In this document: positions 4,065-25,647 of the stretch, piece by piece
Layout: the number at the start of each line of letters is the position of its first letter
How positions within the stretch are numbered: the first letter of the stretch is position 1
Assembly: GCA_938015795.1 (NCBI GenBank)
Contig: CALLXA010000080.1
Location: forward strand, 1-29,008
Length of the DNA: 29,008 nt
Direction: 5' to 3'
Source of the DNA: an uncultured bacterium
GTDB taxonomy: Bacteria > Patescibacteriota > Dojkabacteria > SC72
The notes under the pieces: model-generated
The model's database searches: none
Told to the model about the DNA's origin: nothing
What the model saw: the letters and a program-made list of their open reading frames with translations, nothing else
Translations under genes and position numbers: made by a program

Positions 4065-4229
4065 ATGGTAATAATAAAAACAATAAGAACATATTTTGAT
4101 GTTGTTCTAAACAAATCAATCACATCTGGATTTGTCAATCGTGTTCCACCTGCGAGGGCGAGAAAATTGCTTTCAATGGGGTTAGCAGAGGTGTTGGAAA
4201 TAGATAAGTTAAAAAAAAGAGAACAATGA
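4065..4229 (+). CDS. 54-aa hypothetical protein
   Basis: MVIIKTIRTYFDVVLNKSITSGFVNRVPPARARKLLSMGLAEVLEIDKLKKREQ*; starts 2 nt after the upstream stop; ATGA overlap with the next gene. Confidence 0.65.
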   Translation: MVIIKTIRTYFDVVLNKSITSGFVNRVPPARARKLLSMGLAEVLEIDKLKKREQ

Positions 4230-4888: not shown

Positions 4889-5043
4889 AACAGTTGTTAG
4901 CATTTAAGAGAGGGAGTAAGTATTACCTAAAGATATACGGAGCAGAATACGAGTTGGTATTGCCATCAGAAGTGGTAGCAAAACCACTTTCGGAGAACTT
5001 AAAAAAGAAAATAGCAGGGAAGACAGTAACCAAGAAAAAGTAG
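4885..5043 (+). CDS. 52-aa basic hypothetical protein
   Basis: MKQLLAFKRGSKYYLKIYGAEYELVLPSEVVAKPLSENLKKKIAGKTVTKKK*; ATGA coupling; TAATTT 21 nt upstream. Confidence 0.6.
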   Translation: MKQLLAFKRGSKYYLKIYGAEYELVLPSEVVAKPLSENLKKKIAGKTVTKKK

Positions 5044-5048
5044 TTCTG

Positions 5049-5096
5049 GAAAAGGATAATATAGCTCTTTATTTCTTCTAAAGAATACTATATATT
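5049..5096 (+). promoter_or_regulatory. Sigma70-like promoter with 23-nt repeated upstream element (copy 1)
   Basis: GAAAAGGATAATATAGCTCTTTA (5049-5071) overlaps TTTATT (5068-5073), 17 nt spacer, TATATT (5091-5096). Confidence 0.6.
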
Positions 5097-5140
5097 TTAA
5101 TATGGACTATAAAAAGTGAGTGTTCCATATTTTAATGTGT

Positions 5141-5191
5141 GTTCCTGTGGGCTGGTAGGTTTACTCAACTTTCCTACCACCCTACAAGAGC
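5141..5191 (+). promoter_or_regulatory. Imperfect stem-loop in the leader of the replication initiator
   Basis: TGGTAGG (5153-5159) / CCTACCA (5173-5179), extended by GGG/CCC and TGT/ACA; ends just before SD AAAGGAG. Confidence 0.45.
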
Positions 5192-5205
5192 AGAAAGGAG
5201 TTTCA

Positions 5206-6039: not shown

Positions 6040-6043
6040 ATAT

Positions 6044-6072
6044 TAGATATTTAATATATAATACTATATAAT
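6044..6072 (+). promoter_or_regulatory. Possible sigma70-like promoter
   Basis: TAGATA (6044-6049), 17 nt, TATAAT (6067-6072) in an AT-rich intergenic gap. Confidence 0.45.
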
Positions 6073-6103
6073 TAAGAATTAAGTTAAGTTGAGGGTAAAT
6101 AAG

Positions 6104-6319
6104 ATGAGATACACAGTAACAGTTGAAAAGGAAGCCAAGATAAGTTCTGGCACTTCTTTAGCAATCCAGAAGTTCAAGGATATGCTCAAGTCAGAAAGGA
6201 AGACAGAACAGTTACAAGGGGAGTTGGAAATGTGGTTAAAAGAGATTCCAAAAGACGAGTTCAATGCCTATGTGGAAATAACAGAAGAAATGAGAAACAG
6301 AATAGAGCAGGGTAAGTAA
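6104..6319 (+). CDS. Hypothetical protein
   Basis: Open frame with typical composition; ATG 6104 has TAAGTT 19 nt upstream and GAGGG. Confidence 0.75.
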   Translation: MRYTVTVEKEAKISSGTSLAIQKFKDMLKSERKTEQLQGELEMWLKEIPKDEFNAYVEITEEMRNRIEQGK

Positions 6320-6331
6320 AAAGCCTTGCTA

Positions 6332-6379
6332 GAAAAGGATAAAATAGCTCTTTACATTTTATATATATTCTTATATAAT
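6332..6379 (+). promoter_or_regulatory. Near-consensus sigma70 promoter with 23-nt repeated upstream element (copy 2)
   Basis: GAAAAGGATAAAATAGCTCTTTA (6332-6354, 22/23 identical to copy 1) overlaps TTTACA (6351-6356), 17 nt, TATAAT (6374-6379). Confidence 0.75.
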
Positions 6380-6387
6380 GTTAATAT

Positions 6388-6405
6388 AGTTAAGTTAAGT
6401 TAAGT
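6388..6405 (+). repeat. Tandem (TAAGT)n pentamer run
   Basis: AGTTAAGTTAAGTTAAGT; shorter runs at 6079-6090 and 7788-7800; all lie just upstream of start codons. Confidence 0.7.
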
Positions 6406-6414
6406 AAAAAAAAG

Positions 6415-6609
6415 ATGAGAAACACAAAAAGTTTAGAGAGTATCGCAAAGGCAATAGAGGATTTGGGACAAGTTAAAAGAGATATCCTCTTAAAGGTAGG
6501 AAACATAGAGGATAACTCCAGTATAGTATTCACAAACTTAATGATTGATAAGACAAATGAATTGATTAGACTTTTACAGTATAGAGAAATGGTAGAAAGA
6601 AACAGGTAA
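6415..6609 (+). CDS. Hypothetical protein (helical)
   Basis: ORF track; follows the promoter; TAAGTT at -19. Confidence 0.7.
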   Translation: MRNTKSLESIAKAIEDLGQVKRDILLKVGNIEDNSSIVFTNLMIDKTNELIRLLQYREMVERNR

Positions 6610-6678
6610 TTGACTACTCGGAGGGTTTTAGAGATAGAACCCTCACAGTAGGAAACTACAAAATAAGTTGTTAGTCAA
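6610..6678 (+). ncRNA. Candidate structured leader RNA (three-way junction, two GNRA loops)
   Basis: P1 TTGACTA (6610-16)/TAGTCAA (6672-78); P2 GAGGGTTTTA-GAGA-TAGAACCCTC (6621-44, one GU pair); P3 GTAG-GAAA-CTAC (6648-59). Confidence 0.45.
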
Positions 6679-6683
6679 AAAGT

Positions 6684-7106
6684 ATGTCCACAAGAGCAAA
6701 TATAATTATCAAAGACAAACACAGTAAGTTATATTTTTACAGACACTCGGACGGGTATCCAGAAGTAACAATGGAAAGCCTAAAGGGGTTCTGTGGTATG
6801 TATCACAATCAGTTAAGAAACAATGTAAGCCAAAGTTCAGGTTGGTTGATTTTGTTAGGAGCAGTTGAGTATGGTTTCAAAGGAGAAATACAAAACAATG
6901 ATAAGTTTTCAGGTTGGAAAGTAGGAGCATACGAACCAACGACAGGCATACACGGAGATATAGAATATCTTTATGTGATTGATTTAGAAAAAGAAAGTTT
7001 AAGTTGTTACCAAATCAAGTGGGAATTAGGTTATGAGATAACAGAGGAGAATATCCTAAAAGAAAAACCAGTATTGGTTCATAATTTTACAGCAAAGGAG
7101 AATTAG
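6684..7106 (+). CDS. Conserved phage hypothetical protein (Y-x-H-x-DGYP motif)
   Basis: MSTRANI...YFYRHSDGYPE...HGDIEYLYVID pattern, common in phage early regions. Confidence 0.8.
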   Translation: MSTRANIIIKDKHSKLYFYRHSDGYPEVTMESLKGFCGMYHNQLRNNVSQSSGWLILLGAVEYGFKGEIQNNDKFSGWKVGAYEPTTGIHGDIEYLYVIDLEKESLSCYQIKWELGYEITEENILKEKPVLVHNFTAKEN

Positions 7107-7107
7107 T

Positions 7108-7581
7108 ATGGAACTTTCAGAGGTTAGAAAATTAGCATTAGAGTTAATCAAAGAAAATGGGGCAACCTGTTGGTTTACATTTTCAGAAGCAAGAAGACAA
7201 CTTGGCTGTTATTCTCCAAAGGATAATACAATCCATATTTCAAAGAGTTTAGCAGAACTAAACAATAAGAAAGTAGTCAAAGATGTTCTACTACACGAGA
7301 TAGCACACTCTTTAACAAGAGGACACGGACACGACAGAGTCTTCAAGAGATTATGTTCAGAGTTAGGCTGTTCTCAAAAGACTTTCATTGAATTGGAAAT
7401 TAACAAAGAAGAAAAGAGATACCTATACACTTGTAAGAATTGTGGGAAAGTAATCCAAAGACATACTAAAAATTACACAACTGCTTGTTTGAGTTGTTGT
7501 AAAAAGTATAACAAGGGAGAGTATAGCAAAAAGTATTTATTTAATATTAGTGAAAATCCTTTATATGAAAAACGAGTTTAA
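7108..7581 (+). CDS. SprT-like zinc metalloprotease
   Basis: RRQLGCY, LLHEIAH (HExxH), GHGHDRVFK, then CKNCG...CLSC zinc ribbon. Confidence 0.85.
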   Translation: MELSEVRKLALELIKENGATCWFTFSEARRQLGCYSPKDNTIHISKSLAELNNKKVVKDVLLHEIAHSLTRGHGHDRVFKRLCSELGCSQKTFIELEINKEEKRYLYTCKNCGKVIQRHTKNYTTACLSCCKKYNKGEYSKKYLFNISENPLYEKRV

Positions 7582-7804
7582 TGTAACAAGAAAAGTAGAT
7601 GACCCATATGCCATTTACAGGAGCTTTCTTCTTCCAGAGTGGGAGTGGCGAGTATTAAAGAAATGGCAAGTAGATGATAACAAGCCACTAGCAAGATGGT
7701 TTTGTGCAGTTAAGTCGCCCTATACCTACGGAGAGTGGGAATACGGAGATGTCTATGTATCAGAAATAAGAGAAGCAAAGTGTTATGAAGTTAAGTTAAG
7801 ATAG
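7565..7804 (+). CDS. Conserved phage hypothetical protein
   Basis: Trp-rich WEWRVLKKWQ...RWFCAVKSPYTYGEWEYGDVY; ATG 7565 preferred over GTG 7550. Confidence 0.75.
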   Translation: MKNEFNVTRKVDDPYAIYRSFLLPEWEWRVLKKWQVDDNKPLARWFCAVKSPYTYGEWEYGDVYVSEIREAKCYEVKLR

Positions 7805-7811
7805 AATAACA

Positions 7812-8021
7812 ATGACAATAACCAAAGATGAGTTTATGAGATACGAACAGTTAAGAAAGAGTGGAATAACAAATATGTTTGACCTAGAAGTGGTTATGAG
7901 TATTACTTGGCTATCTAAAGAGAAGGTTCTATTTATTATGAAGAACTATGAAAAACTATATGAGAAACTTATAGCAGAGAGTGGAAAGGAATATAGAAGA
8001 AGTAGATATGCACTAAACTAA
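7812..8021 (+). CDS. DUF5049-like small protein
   Basis: YEQLRKSGITNMFD...IMKNYEKL resembles the DUF5049 signature; TAAGTT at -20. Confidence 0.7.
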   Translation: MTITKDEFMRYEQLRKSGITNMFDLEVVMSITWLSKEKVLFIMKNYEKLYEKLIAESGKEYRRSRYALN

Positions 8022-8038
8022 CTAATAAGAAAGAGTGC

Positions 8039-8066
8039 TTTACTTCTTTAGAAGATAATATATAAT
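8039..8066 (+). promoter_or_regulatory. Possible sigma70-like promoter
   Basis: TTTACT (8039-8044), 16 nt, TATAAT (8061-8066) in a 115-nt AT-rich gap. Confidence 0.5.
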
Positions 8067-8136
8067 TAAGTATATTAAAAATAAATTGTAAGAAAGGAAA
8101 ATTATTTATTTTAGTATTTAGAAAAGGAGCAATAAG

Positions 8137-8475
8137 ATGAGAAAAGATATTCCAAAAGAGTTCATAACGACCATACAAGGGGGCAAAGAGTTCATAACCT
8201 ACGAGGGTTTGTTAAACCTATTCCACGAAAACGGTGGAAAGGAAATCCAGACAGAGTTGGTTCAAAGTTTATTAGGAGAAGAAGTATTTTTTGTTTTCAA
8301 AGCAGTAGTAACAGGAGAGAGAGGAACATACACAGGCTACGGAGATGCTTGTAAAGGCAATGTAGGTTCTTTAATCGTAAAACATATGATGAGGATGGCA
8401 GAAACGAGAGCCAAAGCAAGAGCATTAAGGGATTACAGTAATATCGGTATGTGTTCAATAGAGGAGATAGACTAA
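8137..8475 (+). CDS. Minimal Rad52/Sak-like single-strand annealing protein
   Basis: FITYEGLL...VFKAVVTGERGTYTGYGDA...MRMAETRAKARALR resembles the Rad52-fold core; SD AAAGGAG. Confidence 0.6.
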   Translation: MRKDIPKEFITTIQGGKEFITYEGLLNLFHENGGKEIQTELVQSLLGEEVFFVFKAVVTGERGTYTGYGDACKGNVGSLIVKHMMRMAETRAKARALRDYSNIGMCSIEEID

Positions 8476-8477
8476 CA

Positions 8478-8753
8478 ATGAACAAGTTTAACGAAACAAG
8501 AGAACAGTTAGTAAAGAAAGGCTACGGAGAGCATAGAGCCAAGTTAGGCAACGGAGTAGAAATGGTTTACACAAATCTATCTCCGATACAAAGAATTGAG
8601 AACATAGGAAAGGAAATAAGAAGCAAGGAAAGAATTGCTAAAGCAAATAAAAAGGAGCTTTCCTATGTTAAAGGTTTAGAGTTACGAAAGAAGATAGAAG
8701 AAACAATCCAAGCTATAGACAAAGAGTTTGGAAATAATTTTAGTAAAAATTGA
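8478..8753 (+). CDS. Hypothetical basic coiled-coil protein
   Basis: ATG 8478 lies 2 nt after the upstream stop, with GAGGAG upstream. Confidence 0.7.
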   Translation: MNKFNETREQLVKKGYGEHRAKLGNGVEMVYTNLSPIQRIENIGKEIRSKERIAKANKKELSYVKGLELRKKIEETIQAIDKEFGNNFSKN

Positions 8754-8754
8754 G

Positions 8755-9132
8755 ATGTTAAAAATTACAAAAAACGGAATAGAGGGTTCTTACAATTTAA
8801 GTGATATGTTATACGAAGATATGATTTGGTTATTAGACCAGACAAAGAGAAAAGCAAACGAGTTTGAAAAACTGGCAGAGAAAATAGAACTAGACCAAAA
8901 CACTTGGAATTATTTTTGGAAGAAGGTTAGAGATTACAGGGCAGAAGCAGAAGTGATAGAAATTGTTATCAATGACAAGGACAAAATGGTAACACAAGAG
9001 GAGTTTGAAGTAGTTAAGCAAATATTGGGTTCACCAATAGATACAGTAAGTAACTGCTGTGGAGAGCCAGTAATCTACGGAGATATATGTTCAGACTGTA
9101 AGGAGCATTGTTCTAAAGTTTACATATTCTAA
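8755..9132 (+). CDS. Hypothetical protein with C-terminal Cys cluster (zinc ribbon-like)
   Basis: SNCCGEPVIYGDICSDCKEHC; ATG 8755 has TAATTT at -20. Confidence 0.7.
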   Translation: MLKITKNGIEGSYNLSDMLYEDMIWLLDQTKRKANEFEKLAEKIELDQNTWNYFWKKVRDYRAEAEVIEIVINDKDKMVTQEEFEVVKQILGSPIDTVSNCCGEPVIYGDICSDCKEHCSKVYIF

Positions 9133-9134
9133 AT

Positions 9135-10040
9135 ATGAAAGAAATGGTTTACAAACAAAACGGAATAGACATTTACTACTACAATTACAAAGAACCATTT
9201 ATTAAGTTCAAAGGTGGTTTTGGATTTGAAGGAGCATTAGGCTATTCCTTGGACAAAAAGAAAGTTCAATGTCATTTCTGCGGAGAGTTTTACAAATCAA
9301 TCAGAAGTTCCCATATTCAGACCTGCGAGGGTGTAAAGAGATATGAGAAGAAGAACAATGTTCTCATAGAAGACACCAACGACTACAAAGATATTGTTGG
9401 ACTCAATAGGACTTCGGCTCTCATAGGGGAAGAAACAAGATTGAAGTTAATCCAAAATGCCATTGACTGTAACAAGAAATTACAAGTAAGTAAGTGGAAT
9501 GATAAAGAACAAAAAAAGGAAAGGGGGAAAAAGCTATCAGAAAGAAACAGAAGAAGAACAGGAGAAAAAATCTCAATGGAAAAGAGAAACAAATCAGGAA
9601 CTTGCCCTGTTCAATTACTAGAAAGAATAAAAGAAGTTCATCAGGCTCTTGGTCATACTCCTACAAAAAAAGAGTTCTACAATTTCTTCAAGGGAAAGTA
9701 TCTGGGAGCAATATACCAAGTCCACGGAAGTTGGGTAGAAGCAGTTAAAAAGGCAGGATTTATTCCTGTATCTTTGTCTGATGAGCATAGGGAGTATGAA
9801 TATACAAACGAACAGTTATTACAGGCTCTACGAGAGTTCTACGAGAGGTTTGGAAGACTATCTACTTCAAGCGACCATACCAGAGGACTACTTCCAAGTT
9901 ATTGGACATACACAAACAGGTTTGGAAGTATTAACAACGCCAGAAGACAAGCAGAGCTTCCAGTTAAGTATAAGGTTGGAACATTTAAGTATATCTACGA
10001 TTACTCAAGCTGTAATAGTAGGTATCTGGTTAAGAAATAA
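9135..10040 (+). CDS. DNA-binding protein: MucR/Ros-like Zn finger plus two homing-endonuclease-associated repeats
   Basis: VQCHFCGEFYKSIRSSHIQTC; repeats LLERIKEVHQALGHTPT...HGSWVEAVKKAG and LLQALREFYERFGRLST...RFGSINNARRQA; no nuclease motif seen. Confidence 0.7.
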   Translation: MKEMVYKQNGIDIYYYNYKEPFIKFKGGFGFEGALGYSLDKKKVQCHFCGEFYKSIRSSHIQTCEGVKRYEKKNNVLIEDTNDYKDIVGLNRTSALIGEETRLKLIQNAIDCNKKLQVSKWNDKEQKKERGKKLSERNRRRTGEKISMEKRNKSGTCPVQLLERIKEVHQALGHTPTKKEFYNFFKGKYLGAIYQVHGSWVEAVKKAGFIPVSLSDEHREYEYTNEQLLQALREFYERFGRLSTSSDHTRGLLPSYWTYTNRFGSINNARRQAELPVKYKVGTFKYIYDYSSCNSRYLVKK

Positions 10041-10056
10041 GTTTAGTATTAGAAAT

Positions 10057-10431
10057 ATGGGAAGATATTATAGTGGAGATATAGAGGGGAAGTTTTGGTT
10101 TGGAGTTCAAGCAAGTAATGACGCTGATTTTTTCGGAGTAGTAGGTTATCAGCCGAGTGAATTACATTACAATTTTTGGAGGGAAGATTTACCAAAGATT
10201 AAAGAGGGTATAAAAAGATGTGAAAAAGAACTTGGGAAAGAAAGCAAAAAGTTGGAAGTATTTTTCAAGGACAAACCTTTCTACAATGAAAGTGAATTGG
10301 CAGAAGAATTAAAAATAGACATTGTCAAAGTTCCATCTCTATTGGAGTGGTATGCCAGACTTTTACTTGGAATTAAGATAAAAGAGTGTGTAGAGAAGAA
10401 CGGAAGTTGTGATTTTGTTGCGGAGCAGTAA
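10057..10431 (+). CDS. Conserved phage hypothetical protein
   Basis: MGRYYSGDIEGKFWFGVQASNDADFFG; ATG 10057 has TAAGTT at -19, so the track's 9781 start is an overlap artefact. Confidence 0.8.
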   Translation: MGRYYSGDIEGKFWFGVQASNDADFFGVVGYQPSELHYNFWREDLPKIKEGIKRCEKELGKESKKLEVFFKDKPFYNESELAEELKIDIVKVPSLLEWYARLLLGIKIKECVEKNGSCDFVAEQ

Positions 10432-10452
10432 ATAAGTTTAGTTATATATAAG

Positions 10453-10734
10453 ATGAAAGATTGGAAACAAGAATTAGAGGAGATATTAGAAGAAGAAACA
10501 GATACGGGAAGGAATATGATACCGAAGTATGCAAGATGTTATGCAAGAATTATATTAGAAAACTTCATATCCCAAGAAATAGAGAAAGCAAGGCAAGAGG
10601 GGATAAAAGATGGAATGAGAGGAATGATAGATATACTGTGCGAGAAAGGTTGTGGTTCTATGTTCGCAGTTATTGAGGAAAAAGATGTGAATAAAAAGAT
10701 AAAAGAGTTATTATCTAAACTAACAACAAAGTAA
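10453..10734 (+). CDS. Hypothetical protein
   Basis: ORF track; TAAGTT at -20. Confidence 0.7.
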   Translation: MKDWKQELEEILEEETDTGRNMIPKYARCYARIILENFISQEIEKARQEGIKDGMRGMIDILCEKGCGSMFAVIEEKDVNKKIKELLSKLTTK

Positions 10735-10735
10735 T

Positions 10736-10912
10736 ATGGAAAAGAAAAGTCCTTGGGAGATAAGACAAAAGTTTATCTACTTAAAATGTAAGTCTATGAG
10801 GAAAAAGAAACAGGAGAAATTAGAAAAAGAGAGTCCAGTTGAGCAAAAACAACCTGTCTTTAGAGTTATCAAAAAGGATATTAACTTAAAAACCAAAGAA
10901 GATGAAAAGTAA
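10736..10912 (+). CDS. 58-aa basic hypothetical protein
   Basis: MEKKSPWEIRQKFIYLKCKSMRKKKQEK...DEK*; fills the gap between neighbours; absent from the track. Confidence 0.55.
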   Translation: MEKKSPWEIRQKFIYLKCKSMRKKKQEKLEKESPVEQKQPVFRVIKKDINLKTKEDEK

Positions 10913-11327
10913 AATAGAGAAGTTAAGAGGAGAGATAGCTTTACAACCAGAAATATCCTTTGTTTTAAGTGCTATTTTGGAGAAACAGGGAGAAATAATA
11001 GACTACCTCAACTCGCAAGACAAAGAGGAGGAGTTGACAGACAAAAAGAAAGCTATTGACAAGGGGGTTGACAGGAAGGACACCCCAGAGAAGTGGGAGG
11101 ACAGGATAAGAGATTTAATATTAGATATAAGTGCTGATAGATTAGTTAGTAGTGAAAAAGTAGTTGCTATAGTTCAATCCCTCCTAGATGATAGGGAAAG
11201 GGAGGTGTTGGAGGATATATTGGGAGAAACAAGTAAAAGAATAGAAACTTGTGATTACAGAGAAAGAGGTAACCAAATCTGGGAGGTTATCAATGAAAAA
11301 TTAAAATTAAACAGTAAGAAGAAATGA
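10902..11327 (+). CDS. Hypothetical protein
   Basis: ORF track; TAACTT at -20. Confidence 0.7.
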   Translation: MKSKIEKLRGEIALQPEISFVLSAILEKQGEIIDYLNSQDKEEELTDKKKAIDKGVDRKDTPEKWEDRIRDLILDISADRLVSSEKVVAIVQSLLDDREREVLEDILGETSKRIETCDYRERGNQIWEVINEKLKLNSKKK

Positions 11328-11515
11328 AGACATTAACAAAGGGAGAATTAAAGGCAGAGATATTAGCTTTAGAGAAATATATATCAGACAGAAATCTCAA
11401 TAAGGGGACTGAAGACGAATTGAGAAAGAGGGCAGAAAGCTACAAGGCACAACTGATAGTTTACAAAGGCATAGTTCAAGAGTTGTTAGATAAACTTATA
11501 GAGGGAAATAAATGA
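11324..11515 (+). CDS. Hypothetical coiled-coil protein
   Basis: ATGA coupling at both ends. Confidence 0.7.
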   Translation: MKTLTKGELKAEILALEKYISDRNLNKGTEDELRKRAESYKAQLIVYKGIVQELLDKLIEGNK

Positions 11516-11922
11516 AAGTAATACAAGCAGAATTAAAAAATTACAGCAGACGAGCAGACGATTCAGTTAGTTTCAAATGCGACTCTCTTATAGAATTAAG
11601 CAGTAAAGAAGTTGGAGAAATAGACAGTTACCGTGGTTGTGTAGCAGTTCTGGTTCTAACGGACAGTATAATTGGCAATGAGGTAAACATAGACATAGAC
11701 AATATACTTCAGAACTTGCCAGAGAACGACACCATTACAAACTACAAGACACCAAGTAAGAGATTCCGAGATGTCCTGTGGAGATTACTAGAGCAAGAGT
11801 TAAAAAGACAACCTACCAAAGAGGAGTTTACAGATTACTACATTAGAGAGTATAATAAGATTACAGAACATTACAAAAGTAAGTTTGAAAATAATTTAAT
11901 AGATGAAAAAGATGGAGAATAA
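11512..11922 (+). CDS. Conserved phage hypothetical protein
   Basis: SRRADDSVSF...KTPSKRFRDVLWRLLEQ...FTDYY; ATGA coupling. Confidence 0.75.
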   Translation: MKVIQAELKNYSRRADDSVSFKCDSLIELSSKEVGEIDSYRGCVAVLVLTDSIIGNEVNIDIDNILQNLPENDTITNYKTPSKRFRDVLWRLLEQELKRQPTKEEFTDYYIREYNKITEHYKSKFENNLIDEKDGE

Positions 11923-13053: not shown

Positions 13054-13785
13054 ATGAAATGGCACACGGAAGTTCGTAAAGTATCAGACCTGAAGAACTG
13101 GGAAGACAACCCAAGAACCATATCCAACGAGGCATACAAAGAGCTGAAGAAGTCAATCAACGACCTCGGTAATTTTGAGCCATTGGTAATTAACACAGAC
13201 GGAACTGTATTAGCAGGTAACCAGAGGCTTAAAATCCACGCAGAAAGAGGCGACACCGAGGTAGAAGTAAGTGTTCCCGAAAGAGAATTGACACCAGAAG
13301 AAGTTAAGAAGATAGGGATAATCAGTAACAGGCACTCTGGAGAGTGGGATATGGACAAACTAGCCAACGAGTTTGAAGAAGTCCTAGACGAGCTAGGCTT
13401 TGACGAGCTTCTTCTTCCAGAGGATACCAAGATAGACAACCTCTATACAAGAGAGGTAAAGACTCCAATATACGACACGGAGAACACAAGACCACCACTA
13501 GAAGAACTTGTGGATAAGTCAAAAGTTATAGAGCTAAATAACTTGATAAATAGTTCCAATATTCCAGAAGAAGTAAAAGATTTTCTGAAGATAGCGAGTT
13601 CCAGATTCTACACTTTCAATTTCAGCAAGATAGCCGACTACTATGCCAATTCAGACGAAGAAGTCCAAGACATTATGGAGAAATTAGTCCTAGTCATCAT
13701 AGACTACAACAAAGCCATAGAGGGGGGTTTTTTTGATTTTGTAACTAAAGTAATAGAAGAACAGGAAGAAGAATATGGAGAATAG
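13054..13785 (+). CDS. ParB/Srx N-terminal domain protein fused to an acidic helical C-terminal domain
   Basis: WEDNPRTI...LKKSINDLGNFEPLVINTDGTVLAGNQRLK; C-terminal FLKIASSRFYTFNFSKIADYYA...LVIIDYNKAIEGGF. Confidence 0.85.
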   Translation: MKWHTEVRKVSDLKNWEDNPRTISNEAYKELKKSINDLGNFEPLVINTDGTVLAGNQRLKIHAERGDTEVEVSVPERELTPEEVKKIGIISNRHSGEWDMDKLANEFEEVLDELGFDELLLPEDTKIDNLYTREVKTPIYDTENTRPPLEELVDKSKVIELNNLINSSNIPEEVKDFLKIASSRFYTFNFSKIADYYANSDEEVQDIMEKLVLVIIDYNKAIEGGFFDFVTKVIEEQEEEYGE

Positions 13786-14635
13786 AAACTCTGCAGTATT
13801 TATTCTAACAAACGGAAGACCAGATAGGGTTTACACAATACAGACTCTACTTAATCAGGGCTATACAGGAAAGTATTATCTCATAATAGACAACCTAGAC
13901 AAAACAGCCGACAGATACAAAGAACTCTATGGAGATAAAGTAGTAGTTTTTGACAAGGAAGACATAGCAAGGAGATATGATACGGGCGATAACTTCAATG
14001 ATATGAGGGCAATTTTCTATGCTCGTAATGCTAGTTTTGAAATTGCCAAGAAACTCGGAATAGAATATTTTATTCAGCTAGATGACGATTATCTGGACTT
14101 CTCATTTAGGTTTAATAGCAAGAAACAGTTTCAGCACCATACGATTAAGAACCTAGACCGAGTGTTTGAGTATATGTTTCAGCTCTACGATACAAGTGGG
14201 GCATTAACAATCGCTATGGCTCAAGGTGGAGATTACGTAGGAGGTGGAGATGGCTTTGGAAAGGACATAAGAATTAAAAGAAAGGCAATGAATAGTTTCT
14301 TCTGTTCTACTAAAAGACCTTTCCAATTCTACGGAAGAATAAACGAAGATGTTAATACCTACACTTTATTAGGACTAAAAGGAGAATTGATATTCACTCC
14401 AAACATAGTAGCATTAAACCAAGTAACTACACAGGCAAATCCCGGAGGTATGGCAGAAATGTATTTAGACAACGGAACTTTCCTAAAATCTTTCTATAGC
14501 GTAATGTATGCACCGTCTTGTGTTAAAATATCACAGATGGGAAACAAGTATAAAAGAATCCATCATAAAGTCCTGTGGAATAATTGCACACCAAAAATAA
14601 TAAGTTGTGAAAAAAAGAAAAATGGTTTATCTTAA
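13775..14635 (+). CDS. GT-A fold glycosyltransferase, TAGT/GREB1-like
   Basis: VFILTNGRP...YYLIID...YARNASFEIAKKLGIEYFIQLDDDY (DxD)...GRINEDVNTY. Confidence 0.75.
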   Translation: MENRNSAVFILTNGRPDRVYTIQTLLNQGYTGKYYLIIDNLDKTADRYKELYGDKVVVFDKEDIARRYDTGDNFNDMRAIFYARNASFEIAKKLGIEYFIQLDDDYLDFSFRFNSKKQFQHHTIKNLDRVFEYMFQLYDTSGALTIAMAQGGDYVGGGDGFGKDIRIKRKAMNSFFCSTKRPFQFYGRINEDVNTYTLLGLKGELIFTPNIVALNQVTTQANPGGMAEMYLDNGTFLKSFYSVMYAPSCVKISQMGNKYKRIHHKVLWNNCTPKIISCEKKKNGLS

Positions 14636-19436: not shown

Positions 19437-20273
19437 ATGGCAAAACAAGATGCATTAAGTATCTTTTTATCCGACGGAAGCACAGAGGAGAAGTTAATGG
19501 AGTCATACGCAGAAGTAGTTGATATGATTCAGAAGACAGCAGTCTCCTCTCAAATCAAGAATGTAAATCTTTCTGGCGACCCAGAGAGCGGTTCTGTTGA
19601 GGTAAGAAGATTGATGACTTCTGCAAGTCAAGCATATGGAACAGCAAGAAGTGCAGGTGGGGACAAAATCTCCAATAACGGTGTTACAATTAACCTTGAC
19701 CAAGACAAAGAAATCGTAGAAGAAGTAGAGTGGAAAGATGTCCAGTTATTTGGAATATCAGATATTCTAGCAAAGAGAATGACCAATCACGAGATGGCAA
19801 TGGTCAGAGAACTAGACACAGCTTTCTTCGCAGAAGCGGAGTCTGCAGGTTCAGAAGAAACAATTACAAGCTCAACCATAGAAGACCAGATTGAGGAGTT
19901 GATACAATCAGTAGAAACAACTTCAAATAATAATGTTGATGGTGTAGATAGAGATATGCTTGTATTAGTAGTTAAACCTGCTATTTACGGACAATTAAGG
20001 AACTATATAGATTCACTTCCAAATCCTTTAGGTGGTGGAGTTGATGCAAAGAAGTTCCACGATGTTAGAATATTCTCTAACACAAGACAGACCAAAGATG
20101 CTATTTGTATGGCAGTTGGTTCAATAGCACAACCTGTTGTTGCTCAACCATACGAAGTAAGCAGAATCCCATTATCCAATGCAGTAGCAATAGAACTTTA
20201 CTACTCATACGGAACACAGGCAGTAATGTCTGATTTGATTAAGTGGGCTACTTTAAGTGCGGTAAGTGCTTAA
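19437..20273 (+). CDS. Major capsid protein
   Basis: 278 aa after the scaffold; TINLDQDKE, LVLVVKPAIYGQL, ELYYSYGTQAV resemble the HK97 fold; ends SAVSA. Confidence 0.85.
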   Translation: MAKQDALSIFLSDGSTEEKLMESYAEVVDMIQKTAVSSQIKNVNLSGDPESGSVEVRRLMTSASQAYGTARSAGGDKISNNGVTINLDQDKEIVEEVEWKDVQLFGISDILAKRMTNHEMAMVRELDTAFFAEAESAGSEETITSSTIEDQIEELIQSVETTSNNNVDGVDRDMLVLVVKPAIYGQLRNYIDSLPNPLGGGVDAKKFHDVRIFSNTRQTKDAICMAVGSIAQPVVAQPYEVSRIPLSNAVAIELYYSYGTQAVMSDLIKWATLSAVSA

Positions 20274-20307
20274 TAGTTAGTTTGGTTAAGTTTAGATAGG
20301 AGAGGGT

Positions 20308-20772
20308 ATGGAAGATATAATTGAGAGGATAAAAGCATATGTGCTAGTTATCAATCCAAGTCTAACAGATGATGAGTTATTGAACTTTGTAATCGCAGAG
20401 GTAGTAGATAGAGCATTGGCATACACAAACCGAAAACAGTTAGTCGCAGGATATGAGAGATTTTTAGAGGGCGATTACTATGTAGGTGAATACTATGTAG
20501 ATGTAACAGGAACATATCAGCCAATATTACCAATACCACTAGAAATAGAACGGGCATTGGCAAGGGTTATTGTTTTGAGTTACAAGACTGTAAAGGACAA
20601 TGTAGCTAGTGATACTCCTGCTATCAAATCATTACAGGACAATGGTCAATCTGTAAGCTATGGTGATAATGTAGCCAGTTATTTAGCTTCAAAAGAAGAT
20701 TCGGATATATTCTCCTCTGTGAAAGGATTGCTAGATAAGTTTAGAATCCCTACGATAGTTGAAAATACCTAG
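20308..20772 (+). CDS. Head-tail adaptor (gp6/gp15-like)
   Basis: Position after MCP; IKSLQDNGQSVSY...LLDKFR pattern. Confidence 0.75.
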   Translation: MEDIIERIKAYVLVINPSLTDDELLNFVIAEVVDRALAYTNRKQLVAGYERFLEGDYYVGEYYVDVTGTYQPILPIPLEIERALARVIVLSYKTVKDNVASDTPAIKSLQDNGQSVSYGDNVASYLASKEDSDIFSSVKGLLDKFRIPTIVENT

Positions 20773-21121
20773 TAGTTTCAAAACCAAAATAGAAGAAACT
20801 TTTTACGACAAGCTCTTTAATATTTACAATAAAGAACAAACTGTTGATGATGAGGGGTGGGCTAAAGACAAATCAACCACGAAGAAGTCTTCCGTCTATG
20901 GCAATGTAAGGTTTAATAACCTAGCAGAGCTACAAGAAGAATACGGAATCGAGGAAGAAATAGACATAGCCATTACAACTAGCAGTTCGGTTGAATTAGG
21001 AGATATACTGGAATACGAGGGAAATGAATACCGAGTAATCGGCTCTATTCCCTACGATTCCCATAATTTAATATTCGCAAAGAAATGGTTATCACAGTCC
21101 TCAACCTTGACAAGTGTATAA
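20759..21121 (+). CDS. Head closure/stopper protein (gp16-like)
   Basis: Beta-rich 120 aa; ELGDILEYEGNEYRVI; neck synteny. Confidence 0.7.
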   Translation: MKIPSSFKTKIEETFYDKLFNIYNKEQTVDDEGWAKDKSTTKKSSVYGNVRFNNLAELQEEYGIEEEIDIAITTSSSVELGDILEYEGNEYRVIGSIPYDSHNLIFAKKWLSQSSTLTSV

Positions 21122-21516
21122 GGGATTTTGGGAAGCTAGAGAACCTAGATTTATACCCAATAATTAAACCTGCTACACAACTGGTTCAGAGGACAGCCAG
21201 AAGACTTGCTCCTGTTGATACTACGAATCTACGAAAGAGTATTCATATGGAAGCCAAGAAGAAAGGTAAGGATAGCTATGGAAGAATATTTACAAATGTA
21301 GAGTATGCTCCATACCAAGAGTTTGGTTATTCCCGAAAGGTAAAAGCAGGCGACAGGATAATGGTGTATGGAAGATGGGTAACAGCAAAAAAGGGATTCT
21401 CTATTGTGTATAGAGGTAAACCGTATATGCGACCTGCCCTATCCAGACACAGAGCAGAGATACAAAGAGCAGTAAGGAGTTATGTGAAGAATTATATTAA
21501 CAATGGGGGCAAATGA
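21085..21516 (+). CDS. HK97 gp10-like tail completion protein
   Basis: ARRLAPVDTTNLRKSI, NVEYAPYQEFG, KPYMRPAL. Confidence 0.85.
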   Translation: MVITVLNLDKCIRDFGKLENLDLYPIIKPATQLVQRTARRLAPVDTTNLRKSIHMEAKKKGKDSYGRIFTNVEYAPYQEFGYSRKVKAGDRIMVYGRWVTAKKGFSIVYRGKPYMRPALSRHRAEIQRAVRSYVKNYINNGGK

Positions 21517-21845
21517 TAGAACCTAAAAAGAGTGTATATACAATTTTAAGTGCTTTAGATGGAGTTAATGTCTATCAAGCAAGACCAGAGCAAGTAATTG
21601 AATATCCTTGTATAACTTTCTTTGTTAGTAACAATTCACCAACCTATGTTTTGGAAAAAGAAATAGGGTATCAAGAAATGGAAGTAACGATAGATATTTA
21701 CGCGAAGACGAGTAGTGAGAGTGGAGAGTTGTTATCCACTCTGGAACAGGCAATGATTAGTAATGGTTATCGTTTAACCTACTGTTCAGATGTTCCAAAT
21801 GATGATGCAAGTCATCTAACAACTGTATTTAATATAATAGGATAA
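21513..21845 (+). CDS. Tail terminator (gp17-like)
   Basis: EYPCITF, EVTIDIYAK, LEQAMISNGY; precedes the tail tube gene. Confidence 0.75.
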   Translation: MIEPKKSVYTILSALDGVNVYQARPEQVIEYPCITFFVSNNSPTYVLEKEIGYQEMEVTIDIYAKTSSESGELLSTLEQAMISNGYRLTYCSDVPNDDASHLTTVFNIIG

Positions 21846-21850
21846 AAACT

Positions 21851-22282
21851 ATGAGTGCTACAAAGAGTTTAGGCACAACTCTAACAAAGACCAAGAGTGG
21901 AAGTGAGCAGACAGATTTGGTTATTGCTGACTTAACCTCTATCGGAGAAGTTGGTGTTGAGTCTGATGAAATTGATGTAACTACTTTAGATACCACAGGT
22001 GGCTATAAAGAGTTCATTGGTGGATTCAAAGATGCGGGAGAAATGTCCCTAGCAGGAATCATTAAAACTGAAACTGCTATGGAGGCAATGATTGCTCTAG
22101 CAGAATCACAAGAAGTAGAGGAGTGGACTGTAGAAAGTTCAAATGGTTCTACTTGGGTATTTGACGGGTTCGTCAAGTCTTTCAAGGAATCAGAAGCTAC
22201 TGTTGATGGAGTAAGAGGGTTTACTGGAAGTATCAGAATATCTGGTGCTCCTGTATATACTGGTGCGGAAGCAAGTGCATAA
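21851..22282 (+). CDS. Major tail (tube) protein
   Basis: EIDVTTLD...KEFIGGFKDAGEMSL...WVFDGFV...FTGSIRISGAP; ends AEASA. Confidence 0.9.
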   Translation: MSATKSLGTTLTKTKSGSEQTDLVIADLTSIGEVGVESDEIDVTTLDTTGGYKEFIGGFKDAGEMSLAGIIKTETAMEAMIALAESQEVEEWTVESSNGSTWVFDGFVKSFKESEATVDGVRGFTGSIRISGAPVYTGAEASA

Positions 22283-22288
22283 GAATCA

Positions 22289-22325
22289 GGGTGGTATAAC
22301 ACCCACCCAAAGTTCTTTTATTTTT
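22289..22325 (+). terminator. Possible terminator/attenuator after the tail tube gene
   Basis: GGGTGG (22289-94) / CCACCC (22303-08) followed, after a few nt, by a T-rich tract. Confidence 0.4.
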
Positions 22326-22344
22326 AGTTTAGCAATTAAAAGAA

Positions 22345-22650
22345 ATGGAGTTAAAATATACACCACGGACAATCAACGAAATTGAGGTGGAAGAAAAAGG
22401 AAGACCAGTCCAAGATGTTTTGGCAAACTATTCAATGAGGACTATTCTCTTGTTCGTTAAAAAGGGACTAGGAGTAGATGAAACCAAAGCACTGGAAGAA
22501 ATAGAGAAGTATCTAGCAGAGGGTAAGGACACTACGGAATTATATCTTTCAATAATGGAGGCATTACAGAAAGACGGTTTTTTACCACGAAAGCTCAATC
22601 TGGAGAAAGTAAGAGCAGAGATGAGCGAAGAACTGGCAAAAGGAGTGTAA
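22345..22650 (+). CDS. Tail assembly chaperone (gpG-like)
   Basis: Between tail tube and tape measure; contains a slippery site. Confidence 0.8.
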   Translation: MELKYTPRTINEIEVEEKGRPVQDVLANYSMRTILLFVKKGLGVDETKALEEIEKYLAEGKDTTELYLSIMEALQKDGFLPRKLNLEKVRAEMSEELAKGV

Positions 22651-22970
22651 GATTTGGCAAGATATGGGAAGACGGAGAAGAATTAGCTATTAAAATAGGT
22701 TTGAATCTTACTACATATTGGGAAACCACTCCAAAGAGGTTGGAAAAGTATATTAAGGTGTATATTGAGAAAGAAAAACAAAGAGCATTAGAAATGGACT
22801 GGAATAACTATAACTTGGGAAAGTATGTAGCTTTCGCTTTCAATAGTCCTAAAAAATATCCAAGTAAACCATTTCTACAGGAGGAGAAAAAATCAGGAGT
22901 AATGACAGCAAAAGAAATGGAAGAAGTAATGAGAAGAAATACATTAACATTGGGAGGTAAAATCAAATGA
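22345..22970 (+). CDS. gpGT-like fusion chaperone (about 208 aa) made by -1 frameshift
   Basis: Post-shift sequence ...FGKIWEDGEELAIKIGLNLTTYWETTPK... matches gpT-like chaperones; the track's TTG 22701 is probably not a real start. Confidence 0.8.
22578..22584 (+). promoter_or_regulatory. Programmed -1 frameshift site T TTT TTA
   Basis: In-frame GGT TTT TTA; the -1 frame is open from 22584 for 39 codons into the 22701 ORF and on to 22970. Confidence 0.85.
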
Positions 22971-25255
22971 GTAAGATAGAATCAATAGAAGTTTTAATAC
23001 AAGCAAATGCCGACCAGTTTAGGCGAGAGGTTGCCGATGTTAGAGGGCAATTAACACAACTACAAGGTTCTGCTACTGGTATAGGCAAGGGTGTAAACAG
23101 AGATTTTACAGGCTCTATTCTCAAAGCAAATATCGCTACTCAAGTTTTAATAGGGGCGGTCAAGACAGTAGGGAGAGCCATATTCAATACAGGAGCAAAA
23201 GTTGCTAGCCTTGGAAGTCAATATACAAGATTAAAGGTTGCCACGGACACGGTTGCTCGTAATATGGGTATGACCAAAACAGAAGTGGACGACTTGAGAG
23301 CAAGTTTAGAAGATGCCAATACCTATGGTTCACAAGCGGAAAATGTTATTAAGACACTAGCCTTGTCAGGACTCGTTGATATGGCTAACGGATTAAAAGC
23401 AGTTGATGCTAGAACAGGAGAAACGGTTGAGGGAGTAAAGGCTTTGGTTCTTGGTATGAAAGACCTAGGAGCTTCAGCAGGAGTTGATTCAGCCACAGCC
23501 ATAGAAAGATTAACCAAGTTCGTAAGAACAGGAAACCAGAGTTTCGCAGACGGAATAATTGAGTTAGGTAATATGAGATATGCCTACCAAAGATATGGTG
23601 ATTCAATAGGAGTAGCAGGAGAAAAACTAACAGAACAAGCAAGGGCAACCGCAAGACTTGACCTAGTAATGGCAGAGAGTCAAAAGTCCTTCGGAGCATA
23701 TGCTAACACTATGCAAACTTCAGCAAAGGCTATGGATTCCACAAAAAATGCGATAAAGAGTATGTTTGAAAGACTTGGAAGTTATCTAGAGCCAATGTTT
23801 GCGAGTATAGCAAGGGCATTATTCCTTTTCGTAGATGGTATGAGGCAATCCTTAATCGGTTCTGCCGATTCTTTTAGAAACTGGGCTAGTAAAGTAGCAA
23901 GTTACATAATCGCAGTTGTTCGTATTGTAGGAACTTTATTATCAAGACTTCCTGTAATAGGAAAGAACTTTACAGCCTTGAGGGATTTTGCTCTTAAACC
24001 AGTAGCACAAACTATGGGAGAAGTATCAGGAGCAACGGAGGGGACAGGAGATTCAATGGACAAGACAGCCAAAAGCACAAAAGCACTAAAGAAAGAATTG
24101 CTAGGTTTAGCAAGTTTTGACGAACTTAATGTTCTTGAACAATCAGAAACATCAGACGGAGGGGGAGGAGCAGGAGCAAGTAAAGGTGCTTCAATGGGTG
24201 GTGGTATGGACTTCAAAGAAATGATGAATACAGAGGAGCTGAATAACAGTATAAACGATATTAACAAAAGGGTTGATGAGATAATAAAGAATTGGACGGA
24301 CAAGTGGAACTATGCAGTTAGCATTGTTAAACCTATTTTTGAAAGTATTTGGAAATGGATAAACGAGAAAATATGGACACCTCTCAAGACTTTTTGGACC
24401 GAAACTCTTAAACCATTACTAGACTTCTGGTGGAGTATGGTTCAAAAAGAGATAGTTCCTGCCCTAGAAAGACTAGGGGCAATGTTAAGAGAAGTTTTTG
24501 GCATAGCAGGAACACAAGGAGATGTAGTAAAGGAAATATTTAAGACAATCGCACAGATAATAGGTGTAGTCCTAGTTGGTGCGGTAACAGCAGTAATATG
24601 GATTATTGCCAGAGTAATAGATGTCTTTACAGGATTTTTCGCAATAATAAAAGCGGGTATTCAATACTCAATTAGTCAATGGAACAATCTTGTAAATAAA
24701 CTAGCAGATGTAATACTATGGGGAAGAAGTCTAAAGGATAATTTCAATCAATATATAGAAAGTATCAAGGGATTCTTCAACGGATTATTGTTATACATTA
24801 AAGGAGTCTTTACGGGCAATCTTGAAAAGGCTTGGAGTGGTGTAAAACAGATGTTCAGTTCAGTATGGAGTGGTATAACAGCTATATTCAAATCAAACAT
24901 AAATACAATAATTAAACTAATCAACGGGCTGATAGGAGGATTAAACAAAATACAAATCCCGTCAATATTTGGTTCAAAACCAGTAGGGATTAACATAGCA
25001 CCGATACCATACCTAGCACAAGGTGGAATAGTAGAAAGCCCTACACTTGCTATGCTTGGAGAGGCAGGGAAAGAGGCTGTTCTGCCACTAGATAATAATA
25101 CAGCTTGGATAACAGAACTAGCAAATAAACTAGGTAGAGGAGGTGAAAATCTAAACCTTGTTGTCAAGATAGGAGAAGACACCATATTTGAAAAAGCTAT
25201 CTCATACATAAATGATAAGAGTATGAGAACAGGAGCGACTATACTTAATATTTAA
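22967..25255 (+). CDS. Tape measure protein
   Basis: 762 aa Ala/Gly/Ile-rich helical protein; LASFDELNVL; aromatic periodicity; IPYLAQGGIV...AMLGEAGKEAVLPL. Confidence 0.95.
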   Translation: MSKIESIEVLIQANADQFRREVADVRGQLTQLQGSATGIGKGVNRDFTGSILKANIATQVLIGAVKTVGRAIFNTGAKVASLGSQYTRLKVATDTVARNMGMTKTEVDDLRASLEDANTYGSQAENVIKTLALSGLVDMANGLKAVDARTGETVEGVKALVLGMKDLGASAGVDSATAIERLTKFVRTGNQSFADGIIELGNMRYAYQRYGDSIGVAGEKLTEQARATARLDLVMAESQKSFGAYANTMQTSAKAMDSTKNAIKSMFERLGSYLEPMFASIARALFLFVDGMRQSLIGSADSFRNWASKVASYIIAVVRIVGTLLSRLPVIGKNFTALRDFALKPVAQTMGEVSGATEGTGDSMDKTAKSTKALKKELLGLASFDELNVLEQSETSDGGGGAGASKGASMGGGMDFKEMMNTEELNNSINDINKRVDEIIKNWTDKWNYAVSIVKPIFESIWKWINEKIWTPLKTFWTETLKPLLDFWWSMVQKEIVPALERLGAMLREVFGIAGTQGDVVKEIFKTIAQIIGVVLVGAVTAVIWIIARVIDVFTGFFAIIKAGIQYSISQWNNLVNKLADVILWGRSLKDNFNQYIESIKGFFNGLLLYIKGVFTGNLEKAWSGVKQMFSSVWSGITAIFKSNINTIIKLINGLIGGLNKIQIPSIFGSKPVGINIAPIPYLAQGGIVESPTLAMLGEAGKEAVLPLDNNTAWITELANKLGRGGENLNLVVKIGEDTIFEKAISYINDKSMRTGATILNI

Positions 25256-25266
25256 CCTAAAAGGAA

Positions 25267-25647
25267 ATGGCAATATCTTATTTGTGTAAAATAGAGGGAA
25301 CAGATTTAACCCCATATCTAAAGACCTATGATGTTTCCTACGAGGAGATGTGGAGCGAAGCGAATAGAAATATGTCGGGTATGTTGAAAGCAAGTTACAT
25401 AGCTACTACTCCAAAGATATTCCTAGAGTTTAGACAAATGACCAAGGCAGAAATCTCAACTATTATGGGACTATTAGATAATCATAGTTTTACAGTCGCT
25501 TGGTATGATGAAACAGACGATACCTACAAACAAGACGAGTTCTATCGTGGAGAATTAAAGGTTGGTATTCGTGATTTGGATAGTGAGATGTATAAAGAAC
25601 TTTCTGTCAATCTAATAAGTTTTGGAACATTGGAGGCAAGTGCTTAA
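25267..25647 (+). CDS. Distal tail protein (Dit-like)
   Basis: Follows TMP; NRNMSGMLKA...FTVAWYD...FYRG; ends LEASA. Confidence 0.75.
   Translation: MAISYLCKIEGTDLTPYLKTYDVSYEEMWSEANRNMSGMLKASYIATTPKIFLEFRQMTKAEISTIMGLLDNHSFTVAWYDETDDTYKQDEFYRGELKVGIRDLDSEMYKELSVNLISFGTLEASA

Follow-up and report, generated by a model that had tools for sequence, protein, structure and literature searches.

A short C-terminal end shared by virion proteins of an uncultured siphophage and its co-distribution with a phage-encoded GT4 glycosyltransferase

The 29,008-nucleotide contig CALLXA010000080.1 (the window, analysed over its whole length) carries a siphophage with all of its genes on the + strand. Several of its virion proteins, among them the major capsid protein (MCP) and the tail tube protein, share a very short C-terminal end, x-Ser-(Ala/Val)-COOH (hereafter the tag), and the same phage encodes a GT4 glycosyltransferase (GT). 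As described below, the tag is conserved at the level of the protein, and it is co-distributed and co-varies with the family of the GT found in the phages that carry it.

Shared C-terminal ends and glycosyltransferase genes in the window

Translation of the + strand open reading frames (ORFs) and read-out of their codons confirmed the three endings described in the initial annotation. The MCP ends in ..TLSAVSA (GTA AGT GCT TAA, 20262-20273; penultimate Ser at 20265-20267), the tail tube in ..TGAEASA (GCA AGT GCA TAA; penultimate Ser at 22274-22276) and the DUF6711 protein, taken for a Dit, in ..GTLEASA (GCA AGT GCT TAA). As had also been stated, a Ser-Ala terminus is absent from all other closed ORFs of the window (3/49 have it); the post hoc probability of at least three such ends among 49 ORFs is about 5e-4, with an internal Ser-Ala dipeptide frequency of 0.31%. 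A fourth tagged protein had been overlooked: the neck protein ends in ..TLTSV, and we counted it in the same class because the neck proteins of relatives show the tag. S-[AV] ends are thus present in 4/49 ORFs of the window (P about 3e-4). The motif first proposed, (A/E)-(V/A)-S-A, was not borne out, the actual motif being x-S-[A/V], rarely with G, L or I in the last position.

The identities given to the MCP (phrog_267 and an HK97 fold) and to the tube (Phage_TTP_12/phrog_158 and a lambda gpV fold) hold. The label Dit was assigned by position only, the gene lying between those of the tape measure and Tal, as would fit a Dit; its product matches DUF6711 and phrog_1194, both families of unknown function, and gave no PDB sequence match.

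The AF2 model of the MCP (mean pLDDT 76.8) has an HK97 fold whose last strand, residues 268-271, is followed by a coil tail, 272-278. Its best PDB fold match is the capsid of mycobacteriophage Che8, 8E16 (E 9.4e-12, 249 aligned columns), which is also the best PDB sequence-profile match (E 3.5e-5; hhalign probability 60% over 186 columns). In the tube model (pLDDT 80.9) the last strand covers residues 123-137, and beyond it residues 138-143 form a coil tail with a pLDDT of 46. The Ig-like domain of lambda gpV faces outward, and since the tube model superposes on the gpV tube domain (TM 0.79), the tail would leave the fold where gpV carries that domain. The C-terminal exposure that had been suggested as a check was therefore seen in the models: both tails are low-confidence coil beyond the last strand, and the tag position is predicted to be exposed and disordered.

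The GT4 enzyme matches PF00534 (E 6e-23, 81.6 bits) above the gathering cut-off of 26.4, and the EX7E motif of its C-terminal domain (E233, E241) is invariant in an alignment of six sequences (A2). Among its PDB sequence matches, Staphylococcus aureus SdgB takes the top three places and Streptococcus gordonii Gtf1 is tenth of 23; both similarities are weak (E 2e-6 and 1e-4) and confined to the C-terminal nucleotide-sugar domain. The coordinates of these and the other features are collected in Table 1.

Table 1. Position of the phage genes in the window
Feature	Position	Strand	Remarks
Hemolysin-like ORF and M23 peptidase, then HNH gene		+	phrog_1193 (hemolysin-like); first in gene order
GT4 operon	2439-5043	+	GT4, Maf-like, 54-aa ORF, GP88, 52-aa ORF; precedes replication genes
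GT4 glycosyltransferase, 309 aa	2439-3368	+	GT-B fold; PF00534
MptE/Maf-like protein, 233 aa	3361-4062	+	overlaps GT4 stop; PF01973 sub-threshold
54-aa ORF, GP88 (220 aa), 52-aa ORF	4065-5043	+	rest of GT4 operon; GP88 is PF17338
ParB-like and TAGT genes	13054-14635	+	after replication genes, just upstream of TerS
ParB-like protein	13054-13785	+	
TAGT-family glycosyltransferase	13775-14635	+	PF20691, phrog_842
TerS, TerL, portal, minor head protein, scaffold		+	in this order after TAGT
Minor head protein, 351 aa	17764-18819	+	
MCP, adaptor, neck protein, tail completion protein, terminator		+	in this order after scaffold
MCP, 278 aa	19437-20273	+	phrog_267; HK97-fold model
Neck or head-closure protein, 120 aa	20759-21121	+	phrog_939 'head protein'; ends ..TLTSV
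Tail tube, chaperones, tape measure, DUF6711, Tal, tail protein		+	last in gene order
Tail tube protein, 143 aa	21851-22282	+	Pfam Phage_TTP_12/Phage_tail_2, phrog_158
Tail assembly chaperone pair	22345-22650 and 22701-22970	+	usual G/GT-like layout
DUF6711 protein at Dit position, 126 aa	25267-25647	+	PF20458, phrog_1194

Tag and glycosyltransferase content of other phages

The tag was followed through relatives with MCP homologues, comprising 43 IMG/VR loci and 37 genome loci. In the window's MCP clade (starred support) 22/24 distinct MCP sequences end in S-[A/V/G], and the tube ends in S-[A/V] wherever its gene is complete; in the tube alignment a conserved core closes in ..RISGxPxYT and a variable tail follows. 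About half of the clade carries S-[A/V] on the neck protein, and the remainder has an earlier stop at ..KWRQ. Neck homologues end in ..TSPSA, ..DSISA, ..TLGSA, ..QSLSV, ..TLTSA or ..SELSV in tagged relatives and at ..KWRQ in untagged ones. Note that in two loci, L012 and L002, the neck gene ends in ..KWSSKS or ..WERTL and the stop codon is followed by the in-frame codons for ILISV and a stop, or for I, a stop, ISV and a stop. These look like relics of a tag lost through new stop codons, or possibly a read-through site. The extension of the tag to the Dit-position protein is real in the window, but the tail (its last four residues are the extension) is confined to the window and one relative, L001. 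Homologues elsewhere end in ..NKL, ..KLT, ..KKI or ..KRRY, and the Dit-position tag is a recent addition.

For the penultimate Ser the relatives use the codons AGT, TCT, TCA and TCG, for the last residue GCN or GTN, and as a stop TAA or TAG. Since the serine switches between the AGT and TCN boxes and the last codon and the stop vary, selection acts on the amino acids and not on an RNA motif; the AAGTGCWTAA shared by the genes of the window was rejected on these grounds as an RNA or termination signal. Moreover, MCP and tube resemble each other within a phage, with at least two terminal residues alike in 15/44 dereplicated pairs, compared to a shuffled mean of 5.5 and maximum of 13 in 5000 trials (P below 2e-4). 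The penultimate Ser is the only strictly invariant position (104/104 unique tails, partly by selection), and Ser, Thr and Glu are frequent at the positions upstream of it.

Complete or nearly complete contigs of relatives were taken whole and compared with the window proteins by BLAST (Table 2); the GT content of the 33 short IMG/VR relatives, which are 5-59% complete, is uninformative. A visible GT4 gene was accompanied by S-[AV] on both MCP and tube in the window, G003, G008 and G049c21; in L007 the MCP ends in ..ISG, and in G050c6 the tube alone is tagged. The paired tag is absent from the three complete relatives without a GT gene (G004, G006 and G007). As expected from the initial annotation, the tag therefore co-occurs with GT4, and the paired tag is lost in GT-free relatives of the MCP lineage, with exceptions both ways. 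The only window genes common to G003 and G008 and missing from G004 to G007 are GT4 and the ParB-like gene, and ParB-like genes are present in untagged Saccharibacteria relatives as well. GT4 is the one accessory gene that BLAST with the window's proteins detected in tagged genomes of this lineage and not in untagged ones.

Table 2. C-terminal ends and glycosyltransferase-related genes in relatives and in cultured control phages
Phage (completeness)	GT-related genes	MCP end	Tube or tail end	Neck end
G003 (100%)	epimerase/dehydratase, unknown ORF, GT4, P-loop protein, S-adenosylmethionine (SAM) methyltransferase, Maf-like	..TSASA	..AGASA	
G008 (94%)	two GT4-type genes beside ParB and terminase	..VEESA	..SEPSA	..TLTSA
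G049c21	methyltransferase-like ORF, GT4, ParB	..SEVSA	..TEVSA	..SELSV
G050c6	distant GT4	..VSGTV	..ASASV	
G004 (100%)	no PF00534/PF00535	..GDDNG	..TVTGS	
G006 (100%)	no PF00534/PF00535	..HVETM	..TKPSE	
G007 (100%)	no PF00534/PF00535	..YVDTI	..YTKSA	
G005 (88%)	no GT found; ambiguous	..TISA	..TKSA	
Bacillus phage B13	no PF00534	..APVA	..PKGA	
Butyrivibrio virus Bo-Finn	no PF00534	..NAGN	..SATP	
Terrisporobacter phage TPDSL_ph2	no PF00534; single S-A end, unpaired	..TKKSA	..VATA	

The other genes of the GT4 operon are less constant. The Maf-like protein, which had been named with GT4 as part of a candidate system, scores 28.3 bits against PF01973, under the cut-off of 34.6 for membership (its G003 homologue scores 25.0 bits). 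It also matches phrog_2111 and phrog_4603 'sialyltransferase', and its Atlas neighbours are phage-only families with weak similarity to MptE/WaaZ. Maf proteins (motility-associated factor, DUF115/MptE-like) are flagellin nonulosonic-acid transferases; the window protein is far shorter, its family is restricted to phages and it is dispensable for the tag. A Maf-like gene goes with GT4 only in the window, in G003 and in the unrelated G001/G002, which are a single phage (L044, L123); L125 has a fragment of it next to its GT4. It is thus present in just two tagged genomes and is accessory, GT4 alone being the conserved partner. The nearest GT4 homologues (57-65% identity, L117-L122) belong to phages of the window's lineage that have no Maf gene, and in the same loci homologues of the two small ORFs of the operon (54 and 52 aa) follow GT4. 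GP88 was found in none of the fetched relatives, only in the window. The Maf-like protein and GP88 were both rejected as the enzyme that recognises the tag because the majority of tagged genomes do not have them. The 136-aa ORF at 11512-11922 was considered for a third component, since G001 and G003 have it together with GT4 and Maf, and was discarded because it is present without Maf in L117, L018 and L019.

Two phages carry larger sets of such genes. In the relative G003 (L050) an expanded glycan cassette spans 4972-8832, in which the epimerase/dehydratase is NAD-dependent and the P-loop protein is of the AAA_18/33 type. In the unrelated G001 (L046) an extra GT4-like gene lies directly 3' of the MCP gene (9078-11331), and GT4, Maf and a 130-aa ORF form a trio at 34526-36829.

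The gene at 13775, annotated originally as a GT-A and a third candidate enzyme, is a member of PF20691 (E 1.5e-33, 116.9 bits, cut-off 27.5), the TAGT family (TET-associated DNA glycosyltransferase). These enzymes glycosylate hydroxymethylated bases in phage DNA. Among the relatives TAGT occurs only in the window and L011 and does not track the tag, and we discarded it as the tag enzyme on account of its family and its occurrence. It probably acts on DNA, separately from the tag system. The match to TAGT is clear by sequence, but no TET/JBP partner was found: Tet_JBP gave no match in the 746-kb bin that contains the window, in which the phage contig lacks its 3' end, and control genomes gave none either. 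The ParB-like gene overlaps TAGT, and the same slot holds GT4 in G008, G049c21 and G050c6 and a GT2 in G046c7; this slot, adjacent to ParB and terminase, behaves as a hot spot for glycosyltransferase genes.

The same pairing was seen in phages reached through the enzyme. The GT4 alignment (A2) matched 271 IMG/VR contigs, of which 80 loci were kept, and two loci already known (L120 = G003, L126 = G008) were left out of the count of endings. S[AV] ends were present in 45/1266 unique proteins (3.6%) compared to 0.76% for the internal dipeptide (binomial P 8.5e-17), and 'SV' is the second commonest protein ending in these loci. A control set of untagged relatives, imperfect in that it belongs to the same family, gave 1.8% (Fisher P 0.02). 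In the GT4 loci the tag sits on major head proteins of other families (phrog_10, phrog_422) and on major tail proteins (phrog_88, phrog_1407, phrog_158), and the MCP families involved are mutually unrelated. When the MCPs were searched regardless of their ending, 25 loci yielded 18 unique ends, all with a penultimate Ser: 16 are S-[AVG] and the other two ..ASL and ..PSI. Tubes end in S-[AVGLI] in 11/18 unique cases, the other seven including apparent paralogues and one truncated copy.

In these loci the ends of MCP and tube go together, as in L133 (..TTPSV/..EIPSV), L149 (..AEPSV/..EAPSV), L169 (..GTASV/..ATASV) and L172 (..ATPSV/..LAPSV), and L195 has four proteins ending in ..VVSA, ..VISA, ..TISA and ..TTSA. 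The last residue co-varies between the two proteins (PSV/PSV, ASV/ASV, ASL/ASL in L151, ISG/TSG in L186, VSA/TSA), and the type of tag follows the GT4 tree, which has one large PSV clade. Cultured carriers of GT4 are the Butyrivibrio phages Arawn, Idris and Closwp03; in Arawn the last residues are ..KKIASV in the capsid protein and ..KVTSA in the major tail protein. A scan with a single phrog_10 MCP gave nothing but near-identical contigs, and three cultured phages with related capsids and no PF00534 gene served as the GT-free control for this MCP family (Table 2).

These figures bear on the simplest alternative, that three or four small-residue endings came together in one phage by chance and have no function. 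The motif is short, consists of common residues and was picked post hoc. However, the in-window probabilities of about 3-5e-4, the permutation test and the enrichment in the GT4 loci all argue against coincidence, as does the persistence of the tag across dozens of relatives despite synonymous and box-switching Ser codons, and we regard chance as barely credible.

A further comparison came from a sister clade (L093-L096 and L038-L042), found largely in metagenome-assembled genomes (MAGs) of Saccharibacteria. Here the MCPs end in ..GDESES, ..GDESGES or ..DESGESE and the tubes in ..PGSES or ..PESGESE, and in L093 both proteins terminate in ESGESE. No GT4 was found in the loci of this clade. A 514-aa GT2 (PF00535, E 4.6e-36) is encoded directly upstream of TerL in 7/7 of the loci for which that DNA is available. 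Inside the GT4 clade, L075 has a GT2-like gene and an MCP ending in ..LLGS. Judged from these genomes, the sequence of the tag changes where the GT family changes from GT4 to GT2.

A candidate acceptor site and its alternatives

Our results suggest, with a probability that we put at roughly 0.65, that the tag reflects GT4-dependent O-glycosylation of the penultimate Ser on an exposed x-S-[A/V]-COOH tail of several virion proteins. The tag would be an acceptor that projects flexibly from the outside of the capsid, neck, tube and Dit-position proteins. Late in infection the phage GT4 would recognise this C-terminal end and transfer a sugar from a host nucleotide-sugar onto the penultimate Ser. 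In the window phage the Maf-like protein, and perhaps GP88, may then extend or cap the glycan, and other lineages may elaborate it instead with an epimerase/dehydratase, a methyltransferase or a second GT4. The outcome would be a glycan-decorated virion, a functional analogue of Che8 that relies on another tag and on an enzyme family without relation to that of Che8. The initial annotation had proposed that a C-terminal acceptor tag is portable and belongs with a phage glycosyltransferase: the comparisons of co-occurrence, loss, recurrence and swap agree with this link between tag and enzyme, and from it we infer the glycosylation of the serine, the kind of sugar, the roles of Maf and GP88 and a biological benefit.

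Several observations weigh against this proposal. The E-values of GT4 against SdgB and Gtf1 are close to those against GT4 enzymes that do not act on proteins. In the slot beside ParB and terminase the window has TAGT and several relatives have GT4 or GT2, so a DNA target is possible for these enzymes. G001, a complete phage of another type (37.9 kb), has GT4 (53% identity) and Maf and an MCP ending in ..VTYGAY, and none of its ORFs of at least 80 aa ends in S-[AV]. S-A ends occur without a GT1/GT2 gene on the tube of G007, on the MCP and tube of G005 and on the MCP of Terrisporobacter phage TPDSL_ph2. In addition, most of the IMG/VR relatives are fragments, so that the absence of a GT is judged in a handful of genomes, and much of the association between tag and GT in the window's MCP clade may be a single ancestral event.

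Another possibility could be that GT4 and GT2 act elsewhere, on phage DNA, host wall polymers or receptors, and that the ends reflect ancestry, assembly contacts or host-specific constraints, namely protease resistance or the termination context of abundant late proteins. The shared slot, G001, the S-A ends found without a GT and the one tagged ancestor from which most of the clade could stem would all fit this explanation. It accounts poorly for the recurrence of the tag on non-homologous MCP and tube families near the GT4 subfamily, for the shift of the tag sequence with the GT family and for its presence on different proteins in each lineage (neck, Dit-position, the extra proteins of L195). 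AGT/TCN switching excludes a nucleotide signal, and a search of the bin for TET or another base hydroxylase came back empty, as did its controls. We consider an action elsewhere unlikely.

Alternatively, tag and GT4 could be linked with the tail acting as a docking motif, GT4 modifying other Ser or Thr residues or the tail serving another GT4-dependent step. Co-occurrence and co-variation are silent on which residue is modified, and Ser, Thr and Glu abound upstream in the tails. The penultimate Ser, however, is the sole strictly invariant position, not only in the 104/104 tails that are partly a product of selection but also in 25/25 unselected MCP loci. In Che8 the glycans are reported at the C-termini (PMC12619734). 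Docking is in our opinion an improbable explanation, and modification of the penultimate Ser remains the reading that we prefer.

The closest known parallel is Che8. Virion O-glycosylation of this mycobacteriophage and of related actinobacteriophages was reportedly described by Freeman et al. 2023, Cell Host Microbe 31:1216. Two papers that cite this study place glycans of Che8 virions at the C-termini of the capsid and tail-tube subunits (PMC12619734, PMC11256854). In the Che8 record capsid gp6 ends in ..FNKTGS and tube gp11 in ..QYSDGS, both in Gly-Ser. As occurs in the window, Che8 thus combines a phage-encoded glycosyltransferase with a very short C-terminal end shared by capsid and tube, and some relatives in the window's MCP lineage (G003, G049c21) have a methyltransferase (compare Che8 gp108). 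The differences are equally clear. The Che8 enzymes gp108-110 have a GT-A fold (a GT2-methyltransferase fusion, a GT2 and a GT25), whereas the window GT4 has a GT-B fold and is unrelated in sequence. The Che8 tag is a terminal Gly-Ser and that of the window x-S-[A/V], with Ser in the penultimate position, and up to four virion proteins are tagged in the window, unlike the capsid and tube of Che8. The hosts are Actinobacteria for Che8 and low-GC uncultured bacteria (Saccharibacteria-type, Bacillota bins) for window-type phages. Finally, glycans are reported on Che8 virions, whereas those of the window system are predicted from sequence and models. It would accordingly be a variant of the Che8-type system and not a member of it by enzyme homology.

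For the enzyme, the nearest parallel lies in bacteria. SdgA/SdgB and GtfA (Gtf1) are GT4 protein Ser-O-GlcNAc transferases of the staphylococcal SD-repeat and streptococcal serine-rich-repeat adhesins (PMC8561734). They belong to the same CAZy-type family as the window enzyme (GT4, GT-B fold, EX7E motif), and SdgB and Gtf1 modify Ser in short, low-complexity, exposed peptide contexts. They differ in having more than 500 aa and a DUF1975 insert, compared to 309 aa for the window GT4, and in their substrates, which are long internal repeats, whereas the candidate substrate in the window is a C-terminal dipeptide.

A more general reading, which we hold tentatively and at slightly less than even odds, is that there may be a modular tag code. 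Each GT family would read its own tail of 2-6 residues, which could be appended to any exposed virion protein, and enzyme and tags would co-evolve and move as a unit across phages. The pairs would be GT4 with x-S-[A/V], the GT2 of the sister clade with ES(G)ES(E) and the GT-A set of Che8 with G-S. If so, virion glycosylation would be widespread outside actinophages, in phages of Bacillota, Saccharibacteria and other uncultured hosts, and the tags would permit programmable glycan display on phage particles.

To our knowledge, actinobacteriophages are the only phages in which glycosylated virions have been demonstrated, and there the modification alters recognition by antibodies. With a GT4 system marked by two C-terminal residues, virion glycosylation would reach phages of gut, rumen and candidate-phyla bacteria, and a simple sequence rule would predict from a genome which virions are glycosylated. 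Such a system also suggests a minimal enzyme-plus-tag pair that could be transferred to other proteins. A phage in culture, Butyrivibrio phage Arawn on B. fibrisolvens DSM 3071, has this pattern as well, which makes the prediction accessible to experiment.

Host setting and other features of the phage

The window is an entire contig (C80) of a 746-kb, 132-contig bin with a completeness score of 92%; its GC content is 36%, compared to about 31% for the bin, and its final gene is open at the 3' end, the contig being incomplete. No near-identical phage record was found by megablast against GenBank phages. The MAGs in which relatives of the MCP were located bear the labels Candidatus Saccharibacteria or Nanosyncoccus, Bacilli and Clostridia, which fits a small-genome host, and the phage of the window probably infects a candidate-phyla (Patescibacteria-type) host, or was co-binned with one. 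The ORF density of the bin agrees with the standard genetic code; in the bin of a related contig, L104, the bin's own genes contain in-frame TGA.

A stem-loop terminator lies 3' of the tube gene and is kept in relatives. Homologues of the minor head protein can have very long C-terminal extensions, reaching 1168 aa in G003 (20625-24131) and more than 1800 aa in L121 (6605-12019), and these may be cargo or effector domains. At 9135-10431 of the window is a protein with homing-endonuclease-associated repeats (HNH_repeat), with a separate HNH endonuclease at 2065-2367. Note that the ORFs 9135-10040 and 9781-10431 share 260 overlapping bases, and that one start or frame call may be wrong.

Finally, a Saccharibacteria-associated relative, G046:C7 (L110 8209-12720, minus strand), has an RVT_1 reverse transcriptase beside collagen-repeat and Big_2/DUF6273 proteins. 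The arrangement resembles a diversity-generating retroelement with tail proteins as its targets. A reverse transcriptase is annotated in Butyrivibrio phage Arawn too.

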